From Methanobacteriota archaeon (GTDB lineage: Archaea > Thermoplasmatota > Poseidoniia > Poseidoniales > Thalassarchaeaceae): a DNA stretch of 64,000 nt. The stretch lies in the NCBI GenBank assembly GCA_028355015.1, contig JAOMRN010000001.1, forward strand, positions 1,229 to 65,228. Direction: 5' to 3'. The notes under the pieces are model-generated. The model was not told the DNA's origin, searched no databases, and was given only the letters and a program-made list of their open reading frames with translations. Below, piece after piece: positions 29,288-42,216 of this stretch. Position numbers and translations under genes: made by a program. Numbering within the stretch: position 1 is the stretch's first letter; the number at the start of each line of letters is the position of its first letter.

Positions 29288-29391
29288 CCGCGCTTAGCTC
29301 AGTTGGCTAGAGCACCTGACTGTAGACTGGAAACACATGGTTGTAGGCAGCCATCAGGGGGTCCCCGGTTCAAGTCCGGGAGCGCGGACCA
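29288..29391 (+). tRNA. tRNA-Tyr (anticodon GTA) with a 27-nt intron at the canonical 37/38 position; CCA encoded
   Basis: Hand-folded cloverleaf. Acceptor CCGCGCT/AGCGCGG (C1-G72, A73, as required of archaeal tRNA-Tyr). D arm GCTC-AGTTGGCTA-GAGC. Anticodon stem CCTGA/TCAGG with loop CTGTAG|A interrupted by 29326..29352. Variable loop GGGTC. T arm CCCGG-TTCAAGT-CCGGG. The mature length would be 77 nt including CCA. Confidence 0.85.
29366..29391 (+). repeat. 26-nt direct repeat, copy 1 (3' end of tRNA-Tyr; att-like)
   Basis: CGGTTCAAGTCCGGGAGCGCGGACCA is identical to 33565..33590. Confidence 0.9.
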
Positions 29392-29413
29392 TAATATCAT
29401 CAGATTAGGTAAC

Positions 29414-30535
29414 TTAAGATGTAATTTGCACCACACATTTACCTTTAGCACGACCAGAAAAAGAGCGATTGAACGCTCCTTGCCATCCTTCTTCGGTATC
29501 TTCTGAATTGAAGTTCCAAATACCGTCGAGCACCGGCTTAATTTCTCCACTTTCTAGATACCCTGCAAGTGTCGAGAGATCTTCATGACTTGGTGAAAGG
29601 AAAAGATACTCCCAGTTTGCACCCACAGACCTAGCAGATTTGAACTCCTTCCTCTTTTCTTTCCTCTTCAAGAAAAGCTTGAGTATCCAAGCAGTCCCAC
29701 CTATCCGACGTATTTCTTCAAGGGTTGGCATACCCGCAATGGTAACGATTTTTCCTCCCTCTTTGACAATCTTAGACATCTCATGACTTTCGGCTGTTGT
29801 ATCGAAACACACATCAAATTTTTCATCATTGCTCCCTCCATACACTTCATCGAATCGAGTGTTTTTGTAATTAATTACTACATCTGCTCCGAGACTTTTA
29901 CACAGATTTTCTTTCTCTCCCTTTGATGCGGTAGTGACAACAAGACCTGCTTTAAACACGTTCTTTGCTAATTGAATAGCAATTGTACCAACTCCTCCGG
30001 CTCCACCTGATATGAAGATTCGGTCACCTTCTTTGAGTCCAGAAGATTTGAGGGCCTGGAGCGCAGTCATACCAACGAGAGGAATCGATGCGGCTTCCTC
30101 AAATGTTAGATTATCAGGCTTCATCACAACATTGGCTGTATCTGCAACACAGTACTCTGCCATTGCACCTCTATACCATGGTGTTTTCTTTCCATCATTT
30201 TCGTTTCCAAAAAGACGAGCAAATACAGGTTGACCAACAGAGAATTTTCCTTCAAGGTCTGCTTCTTCAACAACTCCTGCAATATCGTAACAAATGATAT
30301 GAGGGAAGGATGCAACGGGTCGAACCATCTTCAAATCGCCCGATAGTAGTGCTTTGTCAACTGGATTGATGGAAGATGCGTGAACTTTGATTACGATATT
30401 GTTTGAGGCATCAAAACCATGAGGGTAAGCCACACTTGTTTTTTTCAATTGGGAAGGTTTACCATATTTTGAGAAACCGATTATGTTCATTGTTTTGCCA
30501 CTTGGATGTGCATTCATAATCACGGGAACGTACAT
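29414..30535 (-). CDS. Zinc-type alcohol dehydrogenase-like / quinone oxidoreductase (MDR superfamily)
   Basis: Nucleotide-binding GDRIFISGGAGGVGTIAIQLAK, with an overall GroES-like plus Rossmann layout. The real start may be the internal MNIIGF. Confidence 0.8.
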   Translation of the reverse strand: MYVPVIMNAHPSGKTMNIIGFSKYGKPSQLKKTSVAYPHGFDASNNIVIKVHASSINPVDKALLSGDLKMVRPVASFPHIICYDIAGVVEEADLEGKFSVGQPVFARLFGNENDGKKTPWYRGAMAEYCVADTANVVMKPDNLTFEEAASIPLVGMTALQALKSSGLKEGDRIFISGGAGGVGTIAIQLAKNVFKAGLVVTTASKGEKENLCKSLGADVVINYKNTRFDEVYGGSNDEKFDVCFDTTAESHEMSKIVKEGGKIVTIAGMPTLEEIRRIGGTAWILKLFLKRKEKRKEFKSARSVGANWEYLFLSPSHEDLSTLAGYLESGEIKPVLDGIWNFNSEDTEEGWQGAFNRSFSGRAKGKCVVQITS

Positions 30536-30606
30536 CTGTAAATAAATAAAAAAGTGTCAATAGTGTCCTTTTGTAACAATGTTGTAACCTGTATCCTAAT
30601 AACAAA

Positions 30607-30984
30607 ATGATACTTAGCCACCTTATGTCTCAGATACAATCACAGCGTATGCAATCAATGTGTGAATCAGCTCGAAGTCATGTTGACGACCTATTGGTTT
30701 TACTATCAAAATCGAAAATGCTCAGCATTCTTTACGTAATGAATTGTGATCCCTCTCCAATGCGTTTCTCTGAAATCAAGAAGAGAGTTGACTCATCCTC
30801 AACAACAGTTGCAAGACGATTGGCAGAACTTGAAGACAATGGGCTAGTCACCCGTACTGCCTATGCAACCGTCCCAGCTACAGTCGAATATGCACTAACC
30901 GAAGATGCGATTTCACTTCAGCCCAGTCTTGAATCGATGTTTGAATGGGTGCTCAATCGAGCAGATAATTTTGCCGAAAAATAA
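30607..30984 (+). CDS. HxlR-family winged-helix transcriptional regulator
   Basis: LLSKSKMLSILYVM...MRFSEIKKRVDSSSTTVARRLAELEDNGLVTRTAYATVPATVEYALTE is the typical HxlR wHTH. It is divergent from an oxidoreductase gene, the usual HxlR context. Confidence 0.8.
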   Translation: MILSHLMSQIQSQRMQSMCESARSHVDDLLVLLSKSKMLSILYVMNCDPSPMRFSEIKKRVDSSSTTVARRLAELEDNGLVTRTAYATVPATVEYALTEDAISLQPSLESMFEWVLNRADNFAEK

Positions 30985-31146
30985 ACACATACCACGAAAC
31001 TAGTTATTTCCATGAAATTGTAATATTTTTCTAGAATGTGTCTTTATGATAAAATTTTGATGGTTACGGGCATGTTACTAGGACAGTAACGAGTCTGTTA
31101 CTATCAAAACGGTTCTTTATATGTAGTAAGTAGATGGAATTAGTAT

Positions 31147-33432
31147 ATGTCTCGGTTGAGAGTACTATTAATCTGCTTAATGATGATGGCCATTCCTGCA
31201 TCCCAGGTATCTGCTGATGTTGATGAAACGAATTCAAGTCCAGAGGTAACTATTGGGTTTGGCAATGTTACCAATGACACCATGGTATTCACCATGGATA
31301 CCTCTGTAGATGTGTATGTATACCAAGTAACATTGGCTTGGGAGAATGGTGCTGTTTATTGTGGCATCTCAGCATCCGGTGGACTCTCTGAAGAATATAA
31401 CTTGTATGTCAGCGTCCTTTATGCTGGGTGTTTGACAACAGGATACTATTATGGCGCTCAGGGAGGTGCCTGGATCCCCTCAGGTAGTAATGATACTCTC
31501 ACATCTATTTTGTATCAATCCAACAGCCCTGAGGTATGCATCGGGAATGCGACCTATACAGTCATGTTACCCGATGGGGAGTTCGAAACTCGACAAGCAG
31601 ACTTTGATCCCAATGATTGTCTGAGTTATACTATGTATGAAAGAGAATGGCCGTATGATCTATGGTATGTACTTGATGAAGACGGCAATGATGAAGGCGA
31701 CAATGAATCTGAGGCAGAGGAAATTATTGATGACAGTCTTTATCAGTTCAATGAAGATTTGACTGTATTAGAAAATTTGGAAAGTTTTGATGATTTTTCC
31801 ACTCTCATAGAGGCACTCAACATAACAGGATTAACTGATAATTTCAGTTCAAATAATACACCTCAGATGGGGTGGTCAATCTTTGCCCCCACTAATGATG
31901 CTTTTGCTTCTGCAGGCATAGATTTAGATGATTTTGATAGTTCAGAAGAAATAGAATTTTTGACTGAAATCTTACTCTATCATGTTACTTTCGCAGGACC
32001 ATATGCTATGAACTCAAGTATGGCCTACAACAGCTCGAGCGGCGAGTATGAGCCATACTGCCAGCCTTACACTGCTGACTGGATGCCGATGCTAAATGGA
32101 GAATATGCTGATCCATTCGATTACAGCTCTTGGACTGAGACTGTAACAATTTCGAATGACTGCCAGGGAAATCTTACAGTCAACCAGGCCTATATCATTG
32201 ATGCAGATAATCGAGTCTATGGTTATGAATACAACGGGGTCGATGGCTACCCTTTCAACAATCAACTTCCACATGGCTGGGAAATTGCTGAGGATAATGG
32301 GATGATTCAGGTAATCGATCAAGTTCTATTTCCGGCAAGCTTCAATTCTACACCACCGAATAATGATCAGCCAAGATTCAATCCTAGATTTGATATTCCG
32401 TCCAACCTAGAGAATGATGGAGAGTTTGGAGACTTAATGGATGCATTGGGAATGACTATGTTGATGGACGACATTACTATCGAGAATAGCCCTCAGATGG
32501 GAATGACGATATTCGCTCCAACAGATGAGGCATTTGCTGCGGCTGGAATTAATCTTGACGATTATGATAGTCTCCAGAAACTCGAAGGTTTGTCTGAAAT
32601 CCTTCTTAATCATATCTCATTTGACTGGGTATTATCATTCCCTGATGAATGTACGCCCACAGAGTTTGACATGGAAACTACAGATTCATTTTCGGTAACC
32701 ATTTCAAATGATTGTGAAGGTAATATCTTCGTCAATGAAGCAAAAGTTCTCTATTCCCAAGGAGTAGAAAATGGGGTTATTATCGTCATCGATCAAATAC
32801 TGATGCCGATAGAAGAAGAACCTGTAGAGGAGCCTGTCGAAGAACCTGTAGAGGAGCCTGTCGAAGAACCTGTAGAGGAGCCTGTCGAAGAACCAGTAGA
32901 GGAGCCTGTGGAAGAACCAGTAGATACAACCATAGAAACTCCAGTCGATGATATTCCTTTGCAGGATGATGATTCCAAAGTTGATGGCAGCGGACCTTCA
33001 GTTATTTTAGGTCAAAGCAGTACATTCTTTGGAGCGATGATATTGTTCACCATGGTATTGGTTCTAGTCGGTACAGCTGCGGTAAGATCTCCCAAGTCAC
33101 GATTAGATTCCGTAATAATGGAAAATGAAGTTGAAGCAGATGAATTATTGTCACTTCTTTCTAGATCAAAAATGGTTCAAATTATTCATGCATTGCATTC
33201 AGAAGAAAATCCAATTAGATTTACAGAATTAAAAAATAGAGTTGATACCTCCTCTACCACACTAACAAGAAGATTGGGCGAATTAGAGGACCATAATTTA
33301 GTAGAAAGAATTGATTATGAGACCGTTCCTCCCACTGTTGTGTATAAATTGACTGATTCCGGAACATCTCTTCTTCCTAGTTTAGAGACATTTTTTGAAT
33401 GGGTTCTAAATGATACAAATGAAACTGAGTAA
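31147..33432 (+). CDS. Membrane-spanning fusion: signal peptide, two fasciclin (FAS1) domains, (EEPV)9 linker, TM helix, cytoplasmic HxlR-type wHTH
   Basis: Signal MSRLRVLLICLMMMAIPASQVSA. FAS1 blocks WSIFAPTNDAFASAG...LLYHV...GMIQVIDQVLFP and MTIFAPTDEAFAAAG...LLNHI...GVIIVIDQILMP. TM FFGAMILFTMVLVLVGTAAV followed by basic RSPKSR. The C-terminal 110 aa are colinear with the stand-alone HxlR at 30607..30984. Confidence 0.8.
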   Translation: MSRLRVLLICLMMMAIPASQVSADVDETNSSPEVTIGFGNVTNDTMVFTMDTSVDVYVYQVTLAWENGAVYCGISASGGLSEEYNLYVSVLYAGCLTTGYYYGAQGGAWIPSGSNDTLTSILYQSNSPEVCIGNATYTVMLPDGEFETRQADFDPNDCLSYTMYEREWPYDLWYVLDEDGNDEGDNESEAEEIIDDSLYQFNEDLTVLENLESFDDFSTLIEALNITGLTDNFSSNNTPQMGWSIFAPTNDAFASAGIDLDDFDSSEEIEFLTEILLYHVTFAGPYAMNSSMAYNSSSGEYEPYCQPYTADWMPMLNGEYADPFDYSSWTETVTISNDCQGNLTVNQAYIIDADNRVYGYEYNGVDGYPFNNQLPHGWEIAEDNGMIQVIDQVLFPASFNSTPPNNDQPRFNPRFDIPSNLENDGEFGDLMDALGMTMLMDDITIENSPQMGMTIFAPTDEAFAAAGINLDDYDSLQKLEGLSEILLNHISFDWVLSFPDECTPTEFDMETTDSFSVTISNDCEGNIFVNEAKVLYSQGVENGVIIVIDQILMPIEEEPVEEPVEEPVEEPVEEPVEEPVEEPVEEPVEEPVDTTIETPVDDIPLQDDDSKVDGSGPSVILGQSSTFFGAMILFTMVLVLVGTAAVRSPKSRLDSVIMENEVEADELLSLLSRSKMVQIIHALHSEENPIRFTELKNRVDTSSTTLTRRLGELEDHNLVERIDYETVPPTVVYKLTDSGTSLLPSLETFFEWVLNDTNETE
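32815..32922 (+). repeat. In-frame tandem repeat, 9 x 12 nt (24-nt super-period), encoding (EEPV)9
   Basis: gaRgaRccWgtN repeats nine times, alternating cctgtagaggag/cctgtcgaagaa. It lies inside the 761-aa ORF, just outside the TM helix. Confidence 0.95.
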
Positions 33433-33564
33433 TGTCATTGTTTCACCCCTGAAAGCAGAGTTAGTAACTGCTTTACAGTACCATTTTTACCTTCACGAAT
33501 ATCCTCCAGGCACTGTCGCGACAACTCCCTCAGGAGCACGAACGCCTCATCCGATACCGGACTT

Positions 33565-33590
33565 CGGTTCAAGTCCGGGAGCGCGGACCA
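33565..33590 (+). repeat. 26-nt direct repeat, copy 2 (orphan tRNA-Tyr 3'-end fragment; att-like)
   Basis: Identical to 29366..29391. The upstream sequence does not supply a matching 5' acceptor strand, so this is a fragment and not a second tRNA. Confidence 0.9.
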
Positions 33591-33872
33591 AAAAATATAA
33601 ACTAAGAAAATTAAATTTCAAAATTGTGCGAGAAGATACAAGTATATTTAAATCAAAAATACAAAAGTAAACAGGCATTCATTAATGAATCATTACGACG
33701 TATAATAATGCACGCAGGACACATACTAACAATACTAATTGGCTCCTACGCATCTTTCGCTATTACAGTGATGAGTGTTACGCCATTATTAGGTTGAACA
33801 GCTAAAACTCAGTAATTCCCATCTTACCTCGAGGAATGACTTCAATAGCCTTCGATTACACAGTATAACTTC

Positions 33873-34058
33873 ATGACCGAAAACACGTGTGAGCATGAGT
33901 GGGATAAGAGCGAAGATATAGATCAATTTCTTGACCTGGTAGACTTGAACCCGCAGTTTGTACAAATCAAAGTTAGGTGCTGCAAGTGCGGGAAAACGGG
34001 ATTGACTGACGCTGATACGACTTGGAAGCCAGTATATTGGGATTTTATTGACCCATGA
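33873..34058 (+). CDS. Hypothetical small Cys-rich (zinc-ribbon-like) protein
   Basis: 61 aa with CEHEW ... CCKCG; located in the island. Confidence 0.4.
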   Translation: MTENTCEHEWDKSEDIDQFLDLVDLNPQFVQIKVRCCKCGKTGLTDADTTWKPVYWDFIDP

Positions 34059-34120
34059 GACCGTACAAATGCGAAAGGATTAACAATAATTATTTATATG
34101 AACATACAGAGATGAATTAG

Positions 34121-34489
34121 ATGAATGAAGATTTACAAAAAGAATTGATTTGGGCATTTGGTACATTAGTCGTTTTCATCATCTTTTTATTATTAGGAGG
34201 CATAAATGAAGTCAGTGGAATAGCAATTTCAGTAGGTGCTTTTCTATTAAGTTGGTCTGTAATGAGTTTTTCCCTCAAGAAATACGCCCCTAATAATGAC
34301 TCAGGGAAAGAACTAGAAAACGAAATGAAATGGTTTGCTGCTATCTTGATATTATTTCTTACTATAATGACTATCATCGGGAAAACTGATAGTGAGTTAG
34401 AATTATCATATTCATTATACGCCATTTTAGTATTTGGCTATACTTTGATTTGGATTATTCGCAGTTCTGCTATCAAATATTTCAATTAA
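34121..34489 (+). CDS. Hypothetical four-helix membrane protein
   Basis: 122 aa with four clear hydrophobic segments. It is more protein-like than the overlapping minus-strand ORF 34117..34425. Confidence 0.5.
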   Translation: MNEDLQKELIWAFGTLVVFIIFLLLGGINEVSGIAISVGAFLLSWSVMSFSLKKYAPNNDSGKELENEMKWFAAILILFLTIMTIIGKTDSELELSYSLYAILVFGYTLIWIIRSSAIKYFN

Positions 34490-34502
34490 TTATTGGAGCA
34501 AT

Positions 34503-34606
34503 GGGTAGGCATTGAAAGGGCCCATAGATAGCCGATAAGTTCACTCAAAACATATCAATGGGCTCAAGTAGAAACCCATTGATTCGTCTGTTAATCGATT
34601 ATGCTA
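34503..34606. repeat. Island intergenic repeat, copy R1 (104 nt)
   Basis: It aligns without gaps to 35627..35730, with 73 of 104 identical by hand count. Shared blocks are TGAAAGGGCCCA and the perfect palindrome TAATCGATTA (34592..34601). It also contains the hairpin CAATGGG-n12-CCCATTG. Confidence 0.75.
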
Positions 34607-34651
34607 AGCACAGTTTTTCGAATTTGCGGTTAGATACAATGTTAGTAAAAA

Positions 34652-35542
34652 TCATTTTTCGAACCACCAATCTCCTTCATTATTAGATGGGTAGTTACTG
34701 GGTAAGTTTTTCCAACTCTTATATCCGACTAGGTATACTTTCATTTCCGTCTCCACTCTGGTTATCCCACTCTCATCAAAGACCATACCATATATTGTTG
34801 AGGATTTCATATGACCAGTTTTTCCAAAGGTGCTCTCAGGATTTGCCCTAGCATATTCTCTTGCTTGATGTTCCTTAATTCCTTTATCGAGACAATAATT
34901 GACATAGATTTCTAATCGTTCTGCTTCATCAATATAACTAATATAACCATGCAAACGCCCATCTACGATTTCAGCTTGAAAAATATTTTCAACAGGCTTC
35001 TTATCTATTTTGATGTGGTTATATTTTGGGTCAATAGACATTATTTTCTGATTATAGGAAATAATATGCTCAATCTCGAATAATTCAGGTAAAATCGATT
35101 TCAATGATTCTTTCCAATTCGGAGTGAATCTTTTCATGAAGTTTGGATATGAATCATAATCACCAATTTCATAATCAACCGTTTTAATTATTGTTTGATT
35201 ATTTTCCTTTATTTCCATCAATCTGTAGCTATTACCATCAGGATTTACAGGTTTATATGTCGTATAGAATAAATCACTAATTGGTATTTTTCTATATTTA
35301 ATATTGATTTTTTTCGTGAATTCTTGTCCAAAAATTATGTGATCTGAGGAATCAATTCGAATTATATATTTTCTATGGAATAAGAATAGACTCATTGGGA
35401 AAGCCCCTAAGAAAATAGCAATAACAATACCAAATGTTAAATCATCAGGAATTACGTATAGTCCGATGAATATGAAGAAACCAAAAACAATAGGTAAACC
35501 CTGATAATCGAATACTGGGAATATGATTTTCTTCTCCTCCAT
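34652..35542 (-). CDS. Hypothetical protein, two N-terminal TM helices plus a soluble domain of about 230 aa
   Basis: 296-aa ORF. TM helices LPIVFGFFIFIGLYVI and FGIVIAIFLGAFPMSLFLF. No recognisable motifs. Repeats R1 and R2 flank it. Confidence 0.6.
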   Translation of the reverse strand: MEEKKIIFPVFDYQGLPIVFGFFIFIGLYVIPDDLTFGIVIAIFLGAFPMSLFLFHRKYIIRIDSSDHIIFGQEFTKKINIKYRKIPISDLFYTTYKPVNPDGNSYRLMEIKENNQTIIKTVDYEIGDYDSYPNFMKRFTPNWKESLKSILPELFEIEHIISYNQKIMSIDPKYNHIKIDKKPVENIFQAEIVDGRLHGYISYIDEAERLEIYVNYCLDKGIKEHQAREYARANPESTFGKTGHMKSSTIYGMVFDESGITRVETEMKVYLVGYKSWKNLPSNYPSNNEGDWWFEK

Positions 35543-35626
35543 ATTACTACCTAAACTTTCGACATATGATAGACCTTTAGGTCTGTTCCCCGATAATTAG
35601 AGGAGGGATACCGCCTAACATCGGAT

Positions 35627-35730
35627 GGTTAGGCTCTGAAAGGGCCCACTGAAAGCCCAATAATTCGCCGATTGCAATCGGATGGGTCTAAGCAGAAACC
35701 CTCAGATTTGTCTATTAATCGATTATACTA
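35627..35730. repeat. Island intergenic repeat, copy R2 (104 nt)
   Basis: Homologous to R1. It contains TAATCGATTA at 35716..35725 and the palindrome CCGATTGCAATCGG. The hairpin GCCTAAC-n8-GTTAGGC (35613..35634) overlaps its 5' end. Confidence 0.75.
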
Positions 35731-35780
35731 TGCTCTGATTCTCTAATTGAACGCCAGCCTATGAAAGAGAATACAGATTA

Positions 35781-35825
35781 CCTAATAATTCTTCAATTAC
35801 TATCGGATGGGGCTAAGTAGTAACC
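35781..35825. repeat. Island intergenic repeat, partial copy R3 (45 nt)
   Basis: cctaataattcttcaattactatcggatggggctaagtagtaacc aligns to the middle of R2 (cccaataattcgccgattgcaatcggatgggtctaagcagaaacc) at about 80% identity. Confidence 0.65.
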
Positions 35826-35949
35826 GTATAATTACTAACAACAAATACCTTATTTTAGCGGACCATAATTTTACAACGTTACTACTATTTTAATCTATTT
35901 GAGCACTGAGCCCAAAACTATATGCCGCTTGAAAACTAAGTATATAGTT

Positions 35950-37089
35950 ATGAGTGAGTTGAAAAATCGCGATAAAGAAAAACAAGAAAATGAAACTGTA
36001 TCAGTCTGGTTTAGAGCACAGAATGCTTTGAAAAATGAAGGTAATTTTAGCCGGATTCCGGGAACTCCTTCATATTCTGAATCTAGAAATAAAATATATG
36101 GAAGAAGAAGTGCGAGAACAATATTTAACAATCTTAGAACTGATAAAAAACTTTACAGGAATCATATTTTATCATATAGTGTCCATGGTCGAGAACATGA
36201 TTTATTGAGTGAGAGTGCAATAAATGACGAAGTTGATTCACGAACTGATATCCTTTTTCTTAGAATGAGGACTCCTGGACTTGATGAAATCTGCTGGAAC
36301 TGGAGTCAGGAGCTGCTATCGCATAGAGATTATCTACGATCAGCCGGTATTGATTTACCAATCGAAAATGATAATAGGAAAATCACACAAATTGAAATGA
36401 TTATAAGAAGTGGTTACTTACATAAAATATGGCATAATTCATTGTATGCTATGAGTGAACTAGGAATGGAAATTCCAAACTGGTGTAAAATTCTTCCTTA
36501 CAATCCATTAGTAAATGCATTTCATGGCACAAACCGAGATGATCAAGACATAGGTGAAAGATTATTATCAATTTTAGAAGAAAAATATCCAGAGTTACAT
36601 GCTGAATTAATCGCATCAAATCCGTTCCGTTCACCAAGAATTGGTTTTCAAAATGGGAAAGGAAATGTAGGGGGAACTAAGTGGCCCTCTATTTCTGATA
36701 TTATTTCAAGATTAGAATCAGGAGAATCTGTCGATCAGGATTGGGAAAATAAATTTCTAGAAGAACTGATTTATGATTATGATGAAGAAGAAGATGACTT
36801 CCCATATGAAAGCACAGAGGATCTTTATCGTTCATTGAAAGTCACTAACCTGAGAAGATGGGCAGATGCTGATGAGATAACTGGTGCTTGGTCTATGAAT
36901 CGTGAGAAATTAATTTCGGCTTGGGCTACTAGAACTGAAAAGATGGAGAGTGCTTATAGAAGACAAGGGGGGGCATACCCTAGAGTACCAAGGCTAACCG
37001 ATTGGACTATTTTTATTATGGAGAATGTAAATTTTTTCAAATTAGATGATGAGTTAATTTTAAGCCCGAAGATGCAAAGGAGTGAATAA
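35950..37089 (+). CDS. Hypothetical protein (about 379 aa from the first ATG; the ORF opens at TTG 35899)
   Basis: Long ORF in the island with an acidic patch YDYDEEEDDFPYE. No Walker, HUH or nuclease motif recognised. Its stop overlaps the next gene. Confidence 0.6.
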   Translation: MSELKNRDKEKQENETVSVWFRAQNALKNEGNFSRIPGTPSYSESRNKIYGRRSARTIFNNLRTDKKLYRNHILSYSVHGREHDLLSESAINDEVDSRTDILFLRMRTPGLDEICWNWSQELLSHRDYLRSAGIDLPIENDNRKITQIEMIIRSGYLHKIWHNSLYAMSELGMEIPNWCKILPYNPLVNAFHGTNRDDQDIGERLLSILEEKYPELHAELIASNPFRSPRIGFQNGKGNVGGTKWPSISDIISRLESGESVDQDWENKFLEELIYDYDEEEDDFPYESTEDLYRSLKVTNLRRWADADEITGAWSMNREKLISAWATRTEKMESAYRRQGGAYPRVPRLTDWTIFIMENVNFFKLDDELILSPKMQRSE

Positions 37090-37090
37090 T

Positions 37091-37591
37091 ATGAAATGTG
37101 ACGATTGCAAAGTAGATTTAATCTCAACAGATATGATTGCGGAAACTACCACTTACTATGAAGGCTACTTACGCTCAAGATTGCTTATACCTAATGAACT
37201 ACTTAATGAGGAGTTAAAAGAGTTAGGAAAACTAGAAGCAGAACTAATTTGGTCTGAATATAATAGCTCTCGGAGTAGATATATGGAGCATTTGGATGGA
37301 GGGTCATGGGATGGACGACCTGAATACCTCGATTTGATAAATCAAATCAAAGATATACATGTAGACATTATTGCTAAGGTATGCCCTAAATGCGGCAAAG
37401 TAAAGATCGTAGCCGATTTAATGAGTAGGAAAAAAATATTCACTAGTTTGGAAAAAATGGTAAAAACCCTCGTAATGAAACGTAAAAAATTAAACAAAGC
37501 CGAAGAGTTCGAAAAGAAGGAAAAAGCAAAAAAAGATAGGGAAATTGCTAAACTAAAAAAACAGATTGAGAAATTGGGCGGTGACTCATAG
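37091..37591 (+). CDS. Hypothetical split zinc-ribbon protein with Lys-rich coiled-coil tail
   Basis: CDDC at the N-terminus and CPKCG about 95 aa later. C-terminal tail KRKKLNKAEEFEKKEKAKKDREIAKLKKQIEKL. GGAG-like motif upstream of ATG 37091; GTG 37082 is an alternative start. Likely translationally coupled to the upstream gene. Confidence 0.55.
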   Translation: MKCDDCKVDLISTDMIAETTTYYEGYLRSRLLIPNELLNEELKELGKLEAELIWSEYNSSRSRYMEHLDGGSWDGRPEYLDLINQIKDIHVDIIAKVCPKCGKVKIVADLMSRKKIFTSLEKMVKTLVMKRKKLNKAEEFEKKEKAKKDREIAKLKKQIEKLGGDS

Positions 37592-37641
37592 GCCGGCGTT
37601 CCTTTCAACCAATCGCATGGGCACCCCATCCATCCGTATAC

Positions 37642-37654
37642 GAAGCAAAGGGTA
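37642..37654. repeat. Left arm of a 13-bp inverted repeat flanking the R-M/recombinase cassette
   Basis: GAAGCAAAGGGTA here; its reverse complement TACCCTTTGCTTC is at 40906..40918. Both lie in intergenic DNA rich in ACCCTA/TAGGGT motifs. Confidence 0.6.
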
Positions 37655-37681
37655 CCCTATGGTATGATATGCACCATAGGG
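37655..37681. repeat. Perfect hairpin / palindromic site (9-bp stem, 9-nt loop)
   Basis: CCCTATGGT-atgatatgc-ACCATAGGG lies immediately after the left IR arm, 64 nt downstream of the 37591 stop. It may be a terminator or a recombinase site. Confidence 0.8.
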
Positions 37682-37727
37682 GTATCATAGGGATAACCAT
37701 AAGTATCAATAGCAAGACCATATATTT

Positions 37728-38519
37728 GTGGAACTTGAACAAATTATGAATCGTCTTGCAGAGCAGGTAGCAATCGTAGACAGAAATATTACACCTACTC
37801 AAAACTATTATATTCCTTCAATAGGAACTTCTAGTGAGCCTACAATTGTACATAGACTAGTAGAAGAATGGGTAAAAAAACATCCTGATGAGTTACCAGG
37901 TATTATGCTAAATAAAAGAGGAAAGGGAACAGAAGGTTGTTTTGAAATAAAATATCCAGGTGCCAAAGGTTCTGAAAAGAAATTGGATTTTGGTTTTTCA
38001 AGTTCAACAGGACATGAAAATTCTGATAATTTAGATAACTTAGAATGGGCAATCGAATTTAAAAAAATCAATTGGATTGGTGGGACAGGAACTGACCAAT
38101 CAGAAAGAGCAGTAGGTAAACTATGCTCTCCTTATCCGGCTACAGGACCAATCTTATCCGATGCCTTAAGGGTCATAAAACATAGTCATGGAACACGTCA
38201 TGCAGTGATTTTAATAAGTCCAGATGTCCATTCTGATCAATTAGAATTATGTAAAAATCATCCAGATAGAGAACGTAGATGGAAACCTGAAAATCCAAAT
38301 GATAGAATTATAGCACTAACTAATTCTTTCAAGAAAAATAATGGTTATGCATTTGAAGCAGAACCTCTGTTACCATTTGTTGAGAAAATATTTGAGTATA
38401 AGGAAATTAACTTCAATGAACGTATTATTAAGAAAATTACTGGATTAACAAACCACCCCGTTTATTCAAGATTGACACTTGTTGGTTGGGAAATTAAAAA
38501 AGAATCTATAGCAGATTGA
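37728..38519 (+). CDS. Putative type II restriction endonuclease (PD-(D/E)xK-like)
   Basis: Candidate catalytic pattern KKLDFGF ... (23 aa) ... LEWAIEFKK (D ... E-x-K). It is convergent with, and overlaps by 58 nt, a C5-cytosine methyltransferase gene. Start is GTG 37728 or ATG 37746. Confidence 0.55.
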   Translation: MELEQIMNRLAEQVAIVDRNITPTQNYYIPSIGTSSEPTIVHRLVEEWVKKHPDELPGIMLNKRGKGTEGCFEIKYPGAKGSEKKLDFGFSSSTGHENSDNLDNLEWAIEFKKINWIGGTGTDQSERAVGKLCSPYPATGPILSDALRVIKHSHGTRHAVILISPDVHSDQLELCKNHPDRERRWKPENPNDRIIALTNSFKKNNGYAFEAEPLLPFVEKIFEYKEINFNERIIKKITGLTNHPVYSRLTLVGWEIKKESIAD

Positions 38520-39841
38520 ATTTCAATAATCATGTTTACATTAACTGCATTACCAAGTTGTTTGTATGATTGATTATCTTGTTCACCTAGAATAAACGGC
38601 TTTCCAAAAATACCATCTACATCGAAACTCTGTATTCTAGCACACTCTTTGGGTGTTAAGTGCCGCCTTAACCATCCTACAACGGGTATTTGTGCCATGG
38701 CCACTAGTGCTGGAAAATAGTCACCTCTTTTAACACGAATTCCAGAAGGTCTGAACTGGAAAATATTTTCCCAATTAGTTCGACTATCTGGGCCCGCTTG
38801 CCACTCATATTTTGTTCGACTAACAGGAATTATTGGCTTACCATCTTTATCATTTTCAAGAACTTTCCAGCGTTTTAACCAGCCATCAATGTAGTCCTTA
38901 TTCTCTGAGTATAGATACCTATTTTTCTTTACAAAATCTTGTTTCCAAAGTGGTAAATTAATTTGTTTTATAATCTCTGTTTTATCCATTCCAGATTCGA
39001 TAGGTCTAACCCAGCCATAAGAAGACCAATTTTTGTGTATTTGAATTAATTGTTCTACACTGTATTGCTCTAAATCACCAGGTATCTCGGCATCACCTTT
39101 GAATGAATCTGCCCATATCGGATGACCTGGTAATTTTGTTTCAACATTTACATTAATAAGAAATTCTTCCCACATTTCTAACCATTTAATTTCCTTTTCC
39201 GACATATGGTATTTTTCAGGAACATGGTCGTCTAATATTGTCCTAACATCTAATGAGTTAGTCTCATGTTCCTTTGGAAACACAAATTTACCACTCACTA
39301 GATCAGAACGTATTGCCACAATATACACTCTTTTTCTAACCTGAGGGACTCCAAATTTATTCGGTGAAAGTACAGCATATTCATGATTATATCCTAATTC
39401 AGAAAGTCTCGATTGAATTACAGAAAATGTATTGCCTCCATCATGTTTTACTAGATTAGGTACGTTTTCTAGAAATATAACTGAAGGTTGATGCTTTTCT
39501 GCAATACTACAAATATCGTGGAATAGAGTGCCTCTAGTTTGATCCATAAATCCTTTCTGTGATCCTGACTTGCTAAATGGCTGACAAGGAAATCCTGCAC
39601 ATATTATGTCCATCGGAGGTATCTCATCTATCACTTCCCTTATGTCACAATTAACAGAGTAACCCTGTGGTTGACCCCAATTCAATTCATATACCTCTGC
39701 AGCATTTTTATCAATATCAGATGCAAAAACACATTCATGTCCTAAACGATGTAGAGCTGCATGAAACCCTCCTATGCCACAGAACAAATCTACGAATCGC
39801 ATATCATCACCAGGAAATACACGGTTAATAAGGAAATGCAA
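38462..39841 (-). CDS. DNA (cytosine-5)-methyltransferase
   Basis: Motif I DLFCGIGGF, motif IV GFPCQPFS, motif VI FLENVPNL, motif X QLGNAVNVN, and a long variable target-recognition region. The likely true start is MRFVDLF at 39802. Confidence 0.9.
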   Translation of the reverse strand: MHFLINRVFPGDDMRFVDLFCGIGGFHAALHRLGHECVFASDIDKNAAEVYELNWGQPQGYSVNCDIREVIDEIPPMDIICAGFPCQPFSKSGSQKGFMDQTRGTLFHDICSIAEKHQPSVIFLENVPNLVKHDGGNTFSVIQSRLSELGYNHEYAVLSPNKFGVPQVRKRVYIVAIRSDLVSGKFVFPKEHETNSLDVRTILDDHVPEKYHMSEKEIKWLEMWEEFLINVNVETKLPGHPIWADSFKGDAEIPGDLEQYSVEQLIQIHKNWSSYGWVRPIESGMDKTEIIKQINLPLWKQDFVKKNRYLYSENKDYIDGWLKRWKVLENDKDGKPIIPVSRTKYEWQAGPDSRTNWENIFQFRPSGIRVKRGDYFPALVAMAQIPVVGWLRRHLTPKECARIQSFDVDGIFGKPFILGEQDNQSYKQLGNAVNVNMIIEIQSAIDSFLISQPTSVNLE

Positions 39842-39842
39842 T

Positions 39843-40742
39843 CTATTTCTTGAGTACTAAATCATCTTTAGTCCAAACCTTCGGTTTTTTTGATTTCTCT
39901 ATCTTCTTATTCTTCTTTCTCTTGATTCTGTGCCAAACTTTGTCACCCCACCATTCAGGTATGTCAAATTGATTTCTATTTGTGTGAAATTTATTTTTGA
40001 TAGTTCTTAGAACGCCTTGGCTTCTCCACTGCCCTCCTAATTTACCTTTTATTTCTCTTTTATTTAGTGATCTTGCTACACTAGTTGCAGTTACTTCATT
40101 ATGCACGACTTGCCAAGCCATGTAGTCAATCCATGATTGTTCAGTCCAATTAGGAAATAGGTCTCCGTTCTTATCAAAGTCCCATCCATAAATCGCTCTA
40201 GTAAAGCGAAGTTGTTCTCTTTTCAGATATGCCATACCTTCTAATGTCCTCTCAGAAATTAAACCTCTTTCCATCTCTGCTAAACCTGACATTATTGTCA
40301 AAAAGAACTTCCCCATAGCGTTACTTGTGTCTATTGCCTGACCGCCTAAATCAACAATGTGGACTTTGATATGATGGTCTTCATTAAGATATTCAATGGT
40401 ATTAATGGCATCACTAGTAATTCTAAATAACCTATCTAATTTCATAGAAATAAGATGTTCAAATTTTCCACTTTCAATTCTTTTTAGCAATAGTTTACCT
40501 GCTGGCCTCTCAAAAAGAGGAATACCTCCACTAACGCCTTCTTCAATTATAATATTCCTAGAAAGTAATTCTAATCCTTTCATACGAGCATAATCCATTA
40601 TTTTTTGCTGTTGACTATCAATACTATTTCCTTCATCGACTTGCCTTCCTGTAGATACACGAATGTATGCTACAGTGGAAATTGCATCTGGCTTAGACTT
40701 AGGCACAATTAAGAATATCACATTACAATAGATATAAATCAT
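39843..40742 (-). CDS. Serine recombinase (resolvase catalytic domain plus truncated recombinase domain)
   Basis: Catalytic VAYIRVSTGRQVDEGNSIDSQ, LDRLFR and SGLAEMERGLISERT motifs. The C-terminal LNKREIKGKLGGQWRSQGVLRTIKN resembles the large-serine-recombinase recombinase domain, but no Zn-ribbon/coiled-coil is present. Its stop lies directly upstream of the MTase ORF (1 nt between them). Confidence 0.8.
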   Translation of the reverse strand: MIYIYCNVIFLIVPKSKPDAISTVAYIRVSTGRQVDEGNSIDSQQQKIMDYARMKGLELLSRNIIIEEGVSGGIPLFERPAGKLLLKRIESGKFEHLISMKLDRLFRITSDAINTIEYLNEDHHIKVHIVDLGGQAIDTSNAMGKFFLTIMSGLAEMERGLISERTLEGMAYLKREQLRFTRAIYGWDFDKNGDLFPNWTEQSWIDYMAWQVVHNEVTATSVARSLNKREIKGKLGGQWRSQGVLRTIKNKFHTNRNQFDIPEWWGDKVWHRIKRKKNKKIEKSKKPKVWTKDDLVLKK

Positions 40743-40905
40743 TCTAATCTAAAATTATAGCGCCCCCCTATATTATTCAAGTGAATCATTGGGATGTACT
40801 AGCACACCCAATCATTCTACATGGAAACTAATGGGCGCCTTCAGTAAACCCTACCCTGCATATTTGGAGCATAGATACCGTTGCACTGCAATACAGCGTA
40901 TTCCC

Positions 40906-40918
40906 TACCCTTTGCTTC
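40906..40918. repeat. Right arm of the 13-bp inverted repeat flanking the R-M/recombinase cassette
   Basis: TACCCTTTGCTTC is the reverse complement of 37642..37654. The neighbouring direct 9-mers CCCTACCCT sit at 40849..40857 and 40903..40911, and ATCATAGGG is shared with the left side. Confidence 0.6.
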
Positions 40919-40977
40919 AAGTTGAATCATAGGGTTATCGAAGGAGTCGTTTAATCTCTACTCAATGATCCATACAA

Positions 40978-41364
40978 TTATTTATCATGATTTTTAAAAA
41001 CCAAAAGTTTCCATGCCATGAATAACAATACGCCCAATACTACCACTGGTCCTCCATAAATAATCAGCAACAAACCAGCCAATCCGTTCAATTCATACCC
41101 ACCGCTTAGAGGAAACATAAGTAAAATTCCTAAGAATACAATTAGTCCGCCCACTATTAGCAATGATATTCCAATCACTTTCAACATAGAAATACGAGGG
41201 AGATCTTGATAAATTACAAGTGACTCATTAACTAGGGTGGAAGAGATCTTTTTTATTTCATGATTAGGGTCTTTGTGCCTGAGGCAAAATCCAGACGTCC
41301 TAAACTCTAGGGCCTTGCATCCTTCGTAAGCACACTTCCTTTCGCCCACATAATTAACAGTCAA
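40978..41364 (-). CDS. Hypothetical protein: N-terminal Cys/His zinc-finger-like motif plus three TM helices
   Basis: CAYEGCKALEFRTSGFCLRHKD followed by hydrophobic segments. It is the last ORF of the island. Confidence 0.5.
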   Translation of the reverse strand: MTVNYVGERKCAYEGCKALEFRTSGFCLRHKDPNHEIKKISSTLVNESLVIYQDLPRISMLKVIGISLLIVGGLIVFLGILLMFPLSGGYELNGLAGLLLIIYGGPVVVLGVLLFMAWKLLVFKNHDK

Positions 41365-41414
41365 TTATTAGGGATAGACTTTGCTACGCCACAAACTAGT
41401 AAAGGAGTCACAGG

Positions 41415-41510
41415 GTAGTGTATCAGTTAACAGACTCTGGTGCGGATCTTCTTCCTAGTTTAGAATCATTTTTTGAATGGGTAATTAATGATACAAATCA
41501 AACTCAATGA
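41415..41510 (+). pseudogene. Displaced relic of the 3' end of an HxlR-type gene (31 codons plus stop)
   Basis: It translates to VVYQLTDSGADLLPSLESFFEWVINDTNQTQ*, versus VVYKLTDSGTSLLPSLETFFEWVLNDTNETE* at 33337..33432 (24/31 aa and about 75/96 nt identical by hand alignment). An in-frame TAA lies 4 codons upstream and similarity is lost beyond it. Confidence 0.75.
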
Positions 41511-41631
41511 ATGCATTTTTAAACAATGGAATTGGTTGATTTGAAAGATTTTGATATATTTTCATGTTCAAGGTCTTGGATATAGACTCATAAAGGGATG
41601 TCAAGTCGGCGACTCGCTACGAGGGATGAAT

Positions 41632-42216
41632 ATGGGAGTTACAAAGTACGTACGTTCGGCTTGGAAGAGTCCAAAGCAAAGCATGGAACCTCGTCATAGA
41701 ACTGGTAGAATGGCTGTATGGCGCCACGAACCAGTGTTTCAGAGAATCGATAAACCTACTCGTATTGATGCGGCTCGTCGTGTTGGATACCGTGCAAAGC
41801 AAGGTGTAGTAATCTGCAGAACACGTGTTCGCCGTGGTGGACTACGTAAGGGTGTAGTAAACATGAAGCGTAAACCTTCAAAGTCAGGTGTAACAAAAAT
41901 TACTATGGCTAAGTCAATTCAAAGAATTGCAGAAGAGCGTGTTTCTCGTAGATACCCGAATCTTAGGGTTCTAAACTCATATTGGGTTGGAGAAGATGGA
42001 AAGAACAAATTTTTCGAAGTTATTCTATTAGATCCTAATCATCCAGTTGTTAAAGCTGATAGTCAATGGTCTTGGGTTGCAGATAATCATCACAAGGGAC
42101 GAGCTATGCGTGGTATGACAAGTGCTGGAAAGCGTGGTCGTGGTTTGTACAACAAAGGTAAGGGTGCAGAGAAACTTCGCCCAAGCTTGAAGGCTAACAA
42201 AAACCGTGGTAAATAA
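41632..42216 (+). CDS. rpl15e: 50S ribosomal protein L15e
   Basis: MGVTKYVRSAWKSPKQS..., with RVRRGG and a basic C-terminus typical of L15e. The ORF-track start at 41551 is an upstream non-ATG codon, so ATG 41632 is preferred. Confidence 0.9.
   Translation: MGVTKYVRSAWKSPKQSMEPRHRTGRMAVWRHEPVFQRIDKPTRIDAARRVGYRAKQGVVICRTRVRRGGLRKGVVNMKRKPSKSGVTKITMAKSIQRIAEERVSRRYPNLRVLNSYWVGEDGKNKFFEVILLDPNHPVVKADSQWSWVADNHHKGRAMRGMTSAGKRGRGLYNKGKGAEKLRPSLKANKNRGK

Follow-up and report, generated by a model that had tools for sequence, protein, structure and literature searches.

The window analyzed here, 64,000 nucleotides of contig JAOMRN010000001.1 (GCA_028355015.1) from an archaeon of the Thalassarchaeaceae (Poseidoniales, Marine Group II), contains a tRNA-Tyr gene whose last 26 nucleotides are found again 4.2 kb downstream. 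The two copies are attachment (att) cores bounding an integrase-less cassette, which is the first unit of a tandem array and has spread between species. The downstream, orphan copy together with the 127 nt upstream of it is int(C), the displaced 3' end of an integrase gene with attP inside it. We consider it very probable that this array was built at the tRNA-Tyr 3' end by integrases with the att core about 42 codons before their stop, with movement in trans as the most likely route for the cassette.

The 26-mer CGGTTCAAGTCCGGGAGCGCGGACCA is found at 29366-29391 and 33565-33590, both on the plus strand, with no mismatches between copies and a start-to-start spacing of 4,199 bp. There is no third site in the window, even with 3 mismatches allowed, and the whole assembly (1.5 Mb, 19 contigs; G000 among our working labels for genomes) contains the 26-mer exactly twice. 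With up to 3 mismatches, 100 dinucleotide shuffles gave no match, so the perfect repeat in the same orientation that the first-pass annotation of this DNA had noticed (26/26) holds. Core copy 1 (29366..29391, plus strand) is the 3' end of the tRNA-Tyr, with the 3' half of the T-arm, the acceptor, A73 and the encoded CCA. The gene itself (GUA; 29288..29391, plus strand; Rfam RF00005, 56.4 bits) has an intron of ~27 nt and an encoded CCA; it is intact, is the attL of the array and has the same sequence as the tRNA at the empty site of a relative (G001). ARAGORN in bacterial mode missed it owing to the intron, while Rfam detects it. Core copy 2 (33565..33590, plus strand) serves both as the cassette's right att and as the left att of the unit after it, and Rfam detects neither a tRNA nor any other family upstream of it or at it, in agreement with the earlier statement that nothing tRNA-like precedes this copy. 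Direct repeats of the 3' end of an intact tRNA gene are the general mark of integrative elements targeting tRNAs.

The site is empty in 5 relatives (G001, G008, G017, G012 and G021, the last from another genus), where FtsZ (minus strand), tRNA-Tyr (plus) and L15e (plus) are neighbours and 70-400 nt separate the tRNA 3' end from the L15e promoter. In the window, 12.1 kb lie between tRNA-Tyr and ribosomal protein L15e (41632..42216, plus strand; Pfam Ribosomal_L15e), its ancestral right-hand neighbour. Since the relatives have FtsZ, tRNA-Tyr and L15e adjacent, the DNA from 29392 to ~41525 is inserted. Several relatives have 2-3 tandem core copies at the same site. The layout in G013 is tRNA, 8 kb, core, 3.8 kb, core; G005 has 3 core copies, one of them decayed (3 mismatches), and G009, G061, G063 and G064 have 2 or 3 each, one G009 copy showing 1 mismatch. 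In G002, a 690-nt unit ends in a distal core followed by the same host flank as in the empty site. The genes between the two cores of the window (an oxidoreductase of the alcohol dehydrogenase (ADH) type, an HxlR regulator and a FAS1-HxlR protein) are missing at the empty sites and in most relatives, several of which have a copy of the orphan core. This is the reverse of what the first-pass annotation named as evidence against an att scar, a gene block universal at this position with an orphan fragment absent elsewhere, and the variable presence that it asked about is confirmed. The tRNA-Tyr site is an integration hot spot in Marine Group II archaea.

The nature of the orphan copy becomes clear from the sister elements at this tRNA in related Marine Group II genomes, which measure 5-9 kb. 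The 8-kb unit abutting the tRNA in G013 encodes a Phage_integrase protein of 445 aa, whose open reading frame (ORF) runs antisense through the core, as codons WSALPDLNR, into the tRNA body. Joined via the core to the arm of the next core copy, as it would be in a circle, it becomes a 466-aa ORF in which the core corresponds to codons 416-424. The catalytic R, HxxR, H and Y align with those of XerA, and the Tyr, near residue 348, lies upstream of the core. Integration therefore displaces the last ~42 codons, and the 466-aa form is shortened to 445 aa in frame 0 and to 427 aa in frame 2. Family members in the databases have 445 or 427 aa; these are the two integrated forms, whose tails come from the antisense tRNA. 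The sole Pfam match of the family is PF00589, and no close solved structure was found, the best match being XerA (4a8e, E = 0.0026). The integrase is present in sister elements of G013, G009, L058, L059, L060, L072, L073 and L078 (L labels denote loci and contigs).

The two crossing variants, frame 0 (WSALPDLNR) and frame 2 (VRAPGLEPK), resynchronise ~12 codons past the core onto a common tail. A division of the arms into "long-tail" and "short-tail" types was considered and rejected, since the "short" arms encode the same tail in frame 2. The tail is found beside distal cores in G013 (twice), G005, G009, G061, L058, L078, L072 and L073. In 7/7 elements (5 on single contigs and 2 across contig breaks, with integrase identities of 39-100%), the frame in which int(N), the part of the gene retaining the catalytic residues, crosses the core is the open tail frame of its own distal arm. 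The ratio of nonsynonymous to synonymous substitution rates (dN/dS) of the tail is 0.12-0.5 (last 36 codons, diverged pairs), and the conserved tail is probably a functional part of the enzyme.

In the window, the minus strand from 33590 to 33438 encodes WSALPDLNRSPVSDEAFVLLRELSRQCLEDIREGKNGTVKQLLTLLSGVKQ up to the stop, in the same frame as the G013 tail and homologous to it. The int(C) remnant (33435..33590, minus strand) has 51 open codons plus the stop; 9 codons are templated by the core (WSALPDLNR) and 42 are the integrase tail SPVSDEAFVLLRELSRQCLEDIREGKNGTVKQLLTLLSGVKQ with its stop, which is 2 nt from the stop of FAS1-HxlR. We identify the orphan as int(C) because the tail is open in the window, recurs at distal cores, matches in frame in all seven elements and has the dN/dS given above. 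Together with the empty sites, this identity supports the initial reading of an intact tRNA plus a displaced 3' fragment as an att scar. Overall, the window arm is 76-78% identical to either G013 arm, while its att-proximal 66 nt are 96% identical to a different G013 arm. The arms are mosaic, which fits site-specific and homologous exchange alike. At the arm-core border, an inverted repeat, CCGGACTT and AAGTCCGG around CGGTTC (33557..33578), forms a hairpin (GGACTT CGGTTC AAGTCC; DNA fold of -9.9 kcal/mol, z = -2.8) and is a candidate core-type binding pair of the integrase.

Some further observations were made on the integrase family. In five tandem cases (L078, L099, L102, L107 and L108), a full int(N) abuts the arm of a neighbour and that arm is of the other frame type (5/5), giving a junk tail of 14-22 residues; this may be chance (~3%), or restoring the native tail may make arrays unstable. 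A 9.3-kb element on a contig of the European Nucleotide Archive (L072) has a 39%-identical family integrase and a variant tRNA-Tyr core ending in GAGTGGGGACCA, belonging to another Poseidoniales family. Its cargo, two HATPase_c_3 proteins, a Dcm methylase and a faint NACHT match, is likely defensive. An integrase paralogue with 43% identity (L055, G009:C10) is located just downstream of a different tRNA, co-directional and with no overlap, which is the classical non-partitioned arrangement within the same protein family.

A metagenome scan for the junction of integrase end, core and arm returned 35 contigs, several of which contain the whole 4.2-kb unit. From core to core, the unit is 97.3-97.7% identical to that of the window in L079, L104, L105 and L110, while host genes on the same contig are 80% (L079) or 84% (L104) identical. 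In L102 it is 93-96% identical, though the host flank there reaches 97.8%. The similarity ends exactly at the cores in five contigs. The position in the array also differs. In L102 the order is tRNA, cassette, core and an integrase element with its int(N); in L104 it is tRNA, a 2.6-kb unit X, core and cassette; in L110, unit-X arm, core, cassette, core and unit X; and in L079 and L105, arm, core, cassette, core, 35 nt and L15e. Because of the unit identity of ~97% against 80-84% for the hosts, and of these differing positions, we conclude that the unit has spread horizontally as an att-bounded cassette, being mobile between species while carrying no integrase. The left junction TAATATCATCAGATTAGG is the same in all cassette copies; a single loss of the integrase therefore preceded the spread. 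Since the integrase is present only in sister elements, the unit in the window is a derivative, an incomplete member of the family. The earlier suggestion of a decayed element was correct as to an integrase-less derivative of a tRNA-Tyr-specific element, but "decayed" is too weak a word for a cassette that has spread at this identity among more divergent hosts.

The cargo consists of three genes. The first (29414..30535, minus strand; Pfam ADH_N and ADH_zinc_N) encodes a zinc-type oxidoreductase of the medium-chain dehydrogenase/reductase (MDR) family, similar to quinone reductases and ADH, whose best NCBIfam match is the PIG3-family quinone oxidoreductase model, below the cutoff. It is followed by an HxlR-type winged-helix regulator (30607..30984, plus strand; Pfam HxlR, 3.2e-15) and by FAS1-HxlR, a fasciclin-domain protein with a C-terminal HxlR domain (31147..33432, plus strand; Pfam Fasciclin and HxlR). 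As previously noted from the letters alone, no integrase lies between the cores: these were the genes that Pfam recognized, and tblastn with the cognate integrase matches the core alone. The FAS1-HxlR gene includes a 12-nt periodic repeat encoding (EEPV)n (32791-32946), which caused a contig break in G005. Between cassette variants, its N-terminal extracellular part is 61-77% identical and the HxlR domain ~90%. In another family of the order (L027, G036:C2, 5423-12007), the ADH-HxlR-FAS1-HxlR trio is inverted and lies 2.8 kb from tRNA-Tyr; neither a second core nor an integrase was found at that locus.

We catalogued 76 core copies in 55 loci, where integrase-less units measure 0.7-4.2 kb and integrase-bearing ones 5.1-8.0 kb. 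An ATCATC-type motif follows the core in 53/76 copies, and GGACTT precedes it in 50 of the 57 copies that are not part of a tRNA. Both flanks, ATCATCA and GGACTT, are kept in all integrase-less units, and we suggest that they are binding determinants of the integrase which the cassettes have retained. Other integrase-less units carry restriction-modification (R-M) systems of EcoRI and Dcm types, a metallo-beta-lactamase-fold protein with rhodaneses, or a metallophosphoesterase. A 2.5-kb unit (L082) has a complete EcoRI-type R-M pair (PF02963, 5e-78, and a D12 methylase), and a 3.2-kb unit (L097) has a Dcm methylase flanked by two unassigned ORFs, possibly its restriction partner. The 2.6-kb unit X (L104, L111, L088 and G004) encodes the metallo-beta-lactamase-fold protein and two rhodaneses.

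From these data we propose the following mechanism. Integration at the core keeps the tRNA intact. Int(N) stays beside the tRNA and acquires a short replacement tail read from the antisense tRNA, and the true tail, int(C), is displaced to the far junction, beside the second core. The first unit of the window (29392-33590) is a cassette with both ends and no int(N), unable to move by itself, and it would have moved by recombination of its two att cores with the integrase acting in trans from a co-resident element. We think it probable, on the grounds of sequence comparison, that the cassette was excised and integrated in this way. The second unit (33591 to ~41.4 kb) is an older member of the family which also lost int(N) and the distal att, and which ends in the relic of a still older cassette. 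This order of events is the one that the arrangement suggests.

Several results weigh against this proposal. No integrase of the family was found by tblastn in the window or in the G000 assembly (84% complete), so an enzyme acting in trans is hypothetical for this genome; likewise, no tyrosine recombinase with R..HxxR..H..Y is encoded beside the att sites there. The left-end remnant TAATATCATCAG (29392..29403, minus strand), which contains the ATCATCA motif and precedes the oxidoreductase stop, reads antisense as ..GAT GAT ATT A|TG.. (D-D-I-M), an integrase end of the frame-2 type, and the right arm is of the frame-0 type; the unit is therefore a chimera and not a simple deletion derivative. 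The long native tail is absent from all database integrases of the family, no free circular form having been found. IMG/VR returned no circular form and no match to the integrase, to four element proteins or to the attP-junction pattern, in protein scans that detect close relatives only. Finally, homologous exchange through the flanking cores and arms may be an open route as well.

Taken to its end, this last point would make the cassette an immobile fossil, spread by homologous recombination (after DNA uptake or cell fusion) anchored on the tRNA, cores and arms, with no site-specific step in trans. The mosaic arms beside the cores (66 nt at 96% against 76-78% for the whole arm) and the lack of an integrase in G000 would fit such a history. 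However, the similarity stops exactly at the 26-bp cores in the five contigs, the array order is permuted (the cassette being found before or after unit X and before the integrase element), the core flanks ATCATCA and GGACTT are preserved in every integrase-less unit, and 26 bp is a short anchor for homologous recombination. We regard this explanation as unlikely, though it keeps some weight, and prefer integrase-mediated exchange between the cores.

Beyond the orphan core, the inserted DNA continues with an island of 8 kb. Its first 232 nt (33591..33822), at the position of int(N) in intact elements, are shared with G013 (96.6%) and G005 (92.2%), and past them the sequences of G000, G013 and G005 diverge. 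This shared stretch contains a small ORF (33706-33797; MHAGHILTILIGSYASFAITVMSVTPLLG, a membrane-like peptide). The next gene encodes a 61-aa zinc-ribbon protein (33873..34058, plus strand; 70% identity, 5e-35), homologous to the small gene divergent from the integrase 5' end. Its homologues stand beside the integrase in 5 intact elements (L108, L078, L060, L058 and L059; 66-93% identity), which often have a DNA methylase next after it, like the island. Because an integrase-adjacent gene starts the island, we interpret it as a second, older unit of the same family with int(N) replaced, and the orphan core, consequently, as the shared junction of a tandem array. The alternative raised in the first-pass annotation, that the fragment belongs to the att region of the island, was thus partly right, since core copy 2 is also the proximal junction of the island, but it is not the island's alone.

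The remaining body of this second unit (33823..41416) is strain-specific, with hypothetical genes, a methylase and a serine recombinase, and is absent in G013, which has 770 nt of other sequence in its place. The C5 DNA methylase (38462-39841, minus strand) is preceded by a convergent 263-aa ORF and followed by the 299-aa serine recombinase (39843-40742, minus strand), the three spanning 37728-40742. The recombinase matches Resolvase and, weakly, Recombinase; its best NCBIfam matches are the CcrB and XisF models, far under the cutoffs, and its homologues, found dispersed over different loci in 13/60 relatives searched, have at most 57% identity. A structured repeat of ~70-100 nt with the palindrome TAATCGATTA is present three times around the gene of a 296-aa membrane protein (34503-35825), and related copies are present in the G005 array (L024, 4480-4608 and 6020-6118).

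The second unit closes with a relic (41408..41520, plus strand; ending in VVYQLTDSGADLLPSLESFFEWVINDTNQTQ and a stop) in which the 3' end of an older FAS1-HxlR cassette variant persists. Over 113 nt it imperfectly repeats the 3' end of FAS1-HxlR, and the two repeats enclose 8,078 bp. L086 (a 426-kb contig) and L094 have an intact variant gene that finishes with the relic sequence immediately before L15e, with no core between them. The relic is not followed by the expected att copy, remainder of int(C) and ~45 nt of host flank; the distal core and flank are gone in G000, G013 and G004. A single insertion of the 8,078-bp island into FAS1-HxlR, producing the relic, was rejected in view of the G013 relic without the island and of the intact variant genes of L086 and L094.

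The serine recombinase and the bracketing 113-nt repeat could also be taken to mean that the orphan core belongs only to the att of the island, inserted by its own recombinase, the ADH-HxlR-FAS1 genes being ordinary chromosome. This is very improbable: G013 lacks the 7.6-kb body and the recombinase yet retains the orphan core with its arm, the 232-nt stretch and the relic, so the recombinase does not account for the 26-bp repeat; empty sites lack the ADH block, which is core-bounded in other contigs; and the arm encodes the tail of a tyrosine integrase. Least credible of all is that core copy 2 belongs to a functional RNA, for example one half of a split tRNA or a tRNA-like 3' element in the transcript of FAS1-HxlR, and is kept perfect by selection on that RNA, since its 26/26 identity despite diverged flanks and the hairpin CCGGACTT-CGGTTC-AAGTCCGG are set against the lack of an Rfam family there, the existence of an intact tRNA-Tyr, an upstream DNA evolving as protein-coding on the opposite strand, and core copies decayed elsewhere (G005 and G009).

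A tRNA-linked att scar is in itself nothing unusual, and the parts of this one can be compared with known systems. For the attP-in-gene layout of phage Mx8, the integrase work of Tojo (1996) and Magrini (1999) is reportedly the source. The integration target of Mx8 is also a tRNA locus, and integrase-less cassette arrays carrying the displaced tail are not known to be part of its biology. The IntP/IntX system of Mx8 (Myxococcus xanthus) has attP inside the 3' coding part of the integrase gene, and integration gives a new C-terminus and leaves the catalytic domain whole (PMC6070905). The elements described here share with it the attP in the 3' tail and the C-terminus replaced on integration (466 to 445 or 427 aa), a likeness of layout. 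Mx8 differs in being a bacterial tailed phage.

The "suicidal" type I archaeal integrases of the SSV (Sulfolobus spindle-shaped virus) type (SSV1/2, pTN3 and pT26-2) also have att in the integrase ORF, partition into int(N) and int(C), and target tRNAs (PMC8371274, PMC7253208). They are split near the 5' end, with a catalytic Int(C) and both halves inactive, match Pfam PF16795 (Phage_integr_3) and have hyperthermophiles as their known hosts (PMC8371274). The present family resembles them in being archaeal, in its tRNA target, in the att inside the integrase ORF (codons 416-424) and in the two gene parts. In contrast, it is split 42 codons before the stop, its int(N) retains all catalytic residues, and it matches PF00589 and not PF16795; no short N-terminal piece is separated from a catalytic C-terminus. 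Its hosts are mesophilic marine plankton.

Tandem accretion at att sites and cis-mobilizable elements (CIMEs) are known from Streptococcus thermophilus (ICESt1/ICESt3); CIMEs are att-flanked units without recombination genes, in tandem with integrase elements and movable by the integrase of the neighbour. The arrangement in L102, an integrase-less att-flanked unit in tandem with an integrase-bearing one, is of this kind. However, CIMEs are bacterial and tied to conjugative elements, whereas no conjugation genes are found here and each unit has a coding integrase fragment. The tycheposon islands of Prochlorococcus are tRNA-anchored and grow by repeated integration, accumulating partial tRNAs, degenerate elements and adaptive or defence cargo (bioRxiv 10.1101/2020.12.28.424599). 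They are likewise islands of marine plankton grown at a tRNA, but they differ in the host domain and probably in the integrase clade, and attP is not reported inside their integrase gene.

Integrons are arrays of small or promoter-less cassettes, each ending in a recombination site, with an IntI/attI platform and attC hairpins, and archaeal ones are reportedly described by Ghaly et al. in 2022. The arrays at tRNA-Tyr are similar in having one recombination site per cassette; however, there is no fixed IntI with an adjacent attI and no attC hairpin, the sites being copies of the tRNA 3' end and the integrase riding on some units. Charybdis elements, ~4.6-kb circles with the Gp3 double Greek-key hallmark, are abundant in IMG/VR and integrate beside tRNAs in Poseidoniales (bioRxiv 10.1101/2025.08.03.668216). 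As to a link with these or with viruses, the integrase and four element proteins showed no IMG/VR relative in the scans, which are limited to close relatives. In the literature on integrases of Marine Group II or Poseidoniales, we found no description of this element family, and the tail-embedded attP is, as far as we found, new for archaea.

Since attP sits in its 3' tail and the catalytic part stays whole, this integrase has a layout halfway from the classical type to the archaeal "suicidal" one, and offers a natural test of the role of the C-terminal tail in recombinases. The 26-bp core and the 466-aa enzyme are also a compact candidate tool for site-specific integration in archaea. Among planktonic archaea, those of Marine Group II are some of the most abundant; they are uncultured and their gene exchange is little known. 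This locus represents a concrete exchange route, one tRNA-Tyr site gathering small cassettes, several with R-M systems, that pass between species. Tentatively, and with more doubt than confidence, we suggest that these archaea may have a tRNA-Tyr-anchored, integron-like exchange of cassettes with R-M, redox and regulatory cargo, each carrying a piece of the integrase tail, which would be shuffled between species by integrases borne on a minority of units, the state of the tail (native, tRNA-templated or taken from a neighbour) being set by the topology of the element. If this is true, the tail state could act as a built-in switch between integration and excision.

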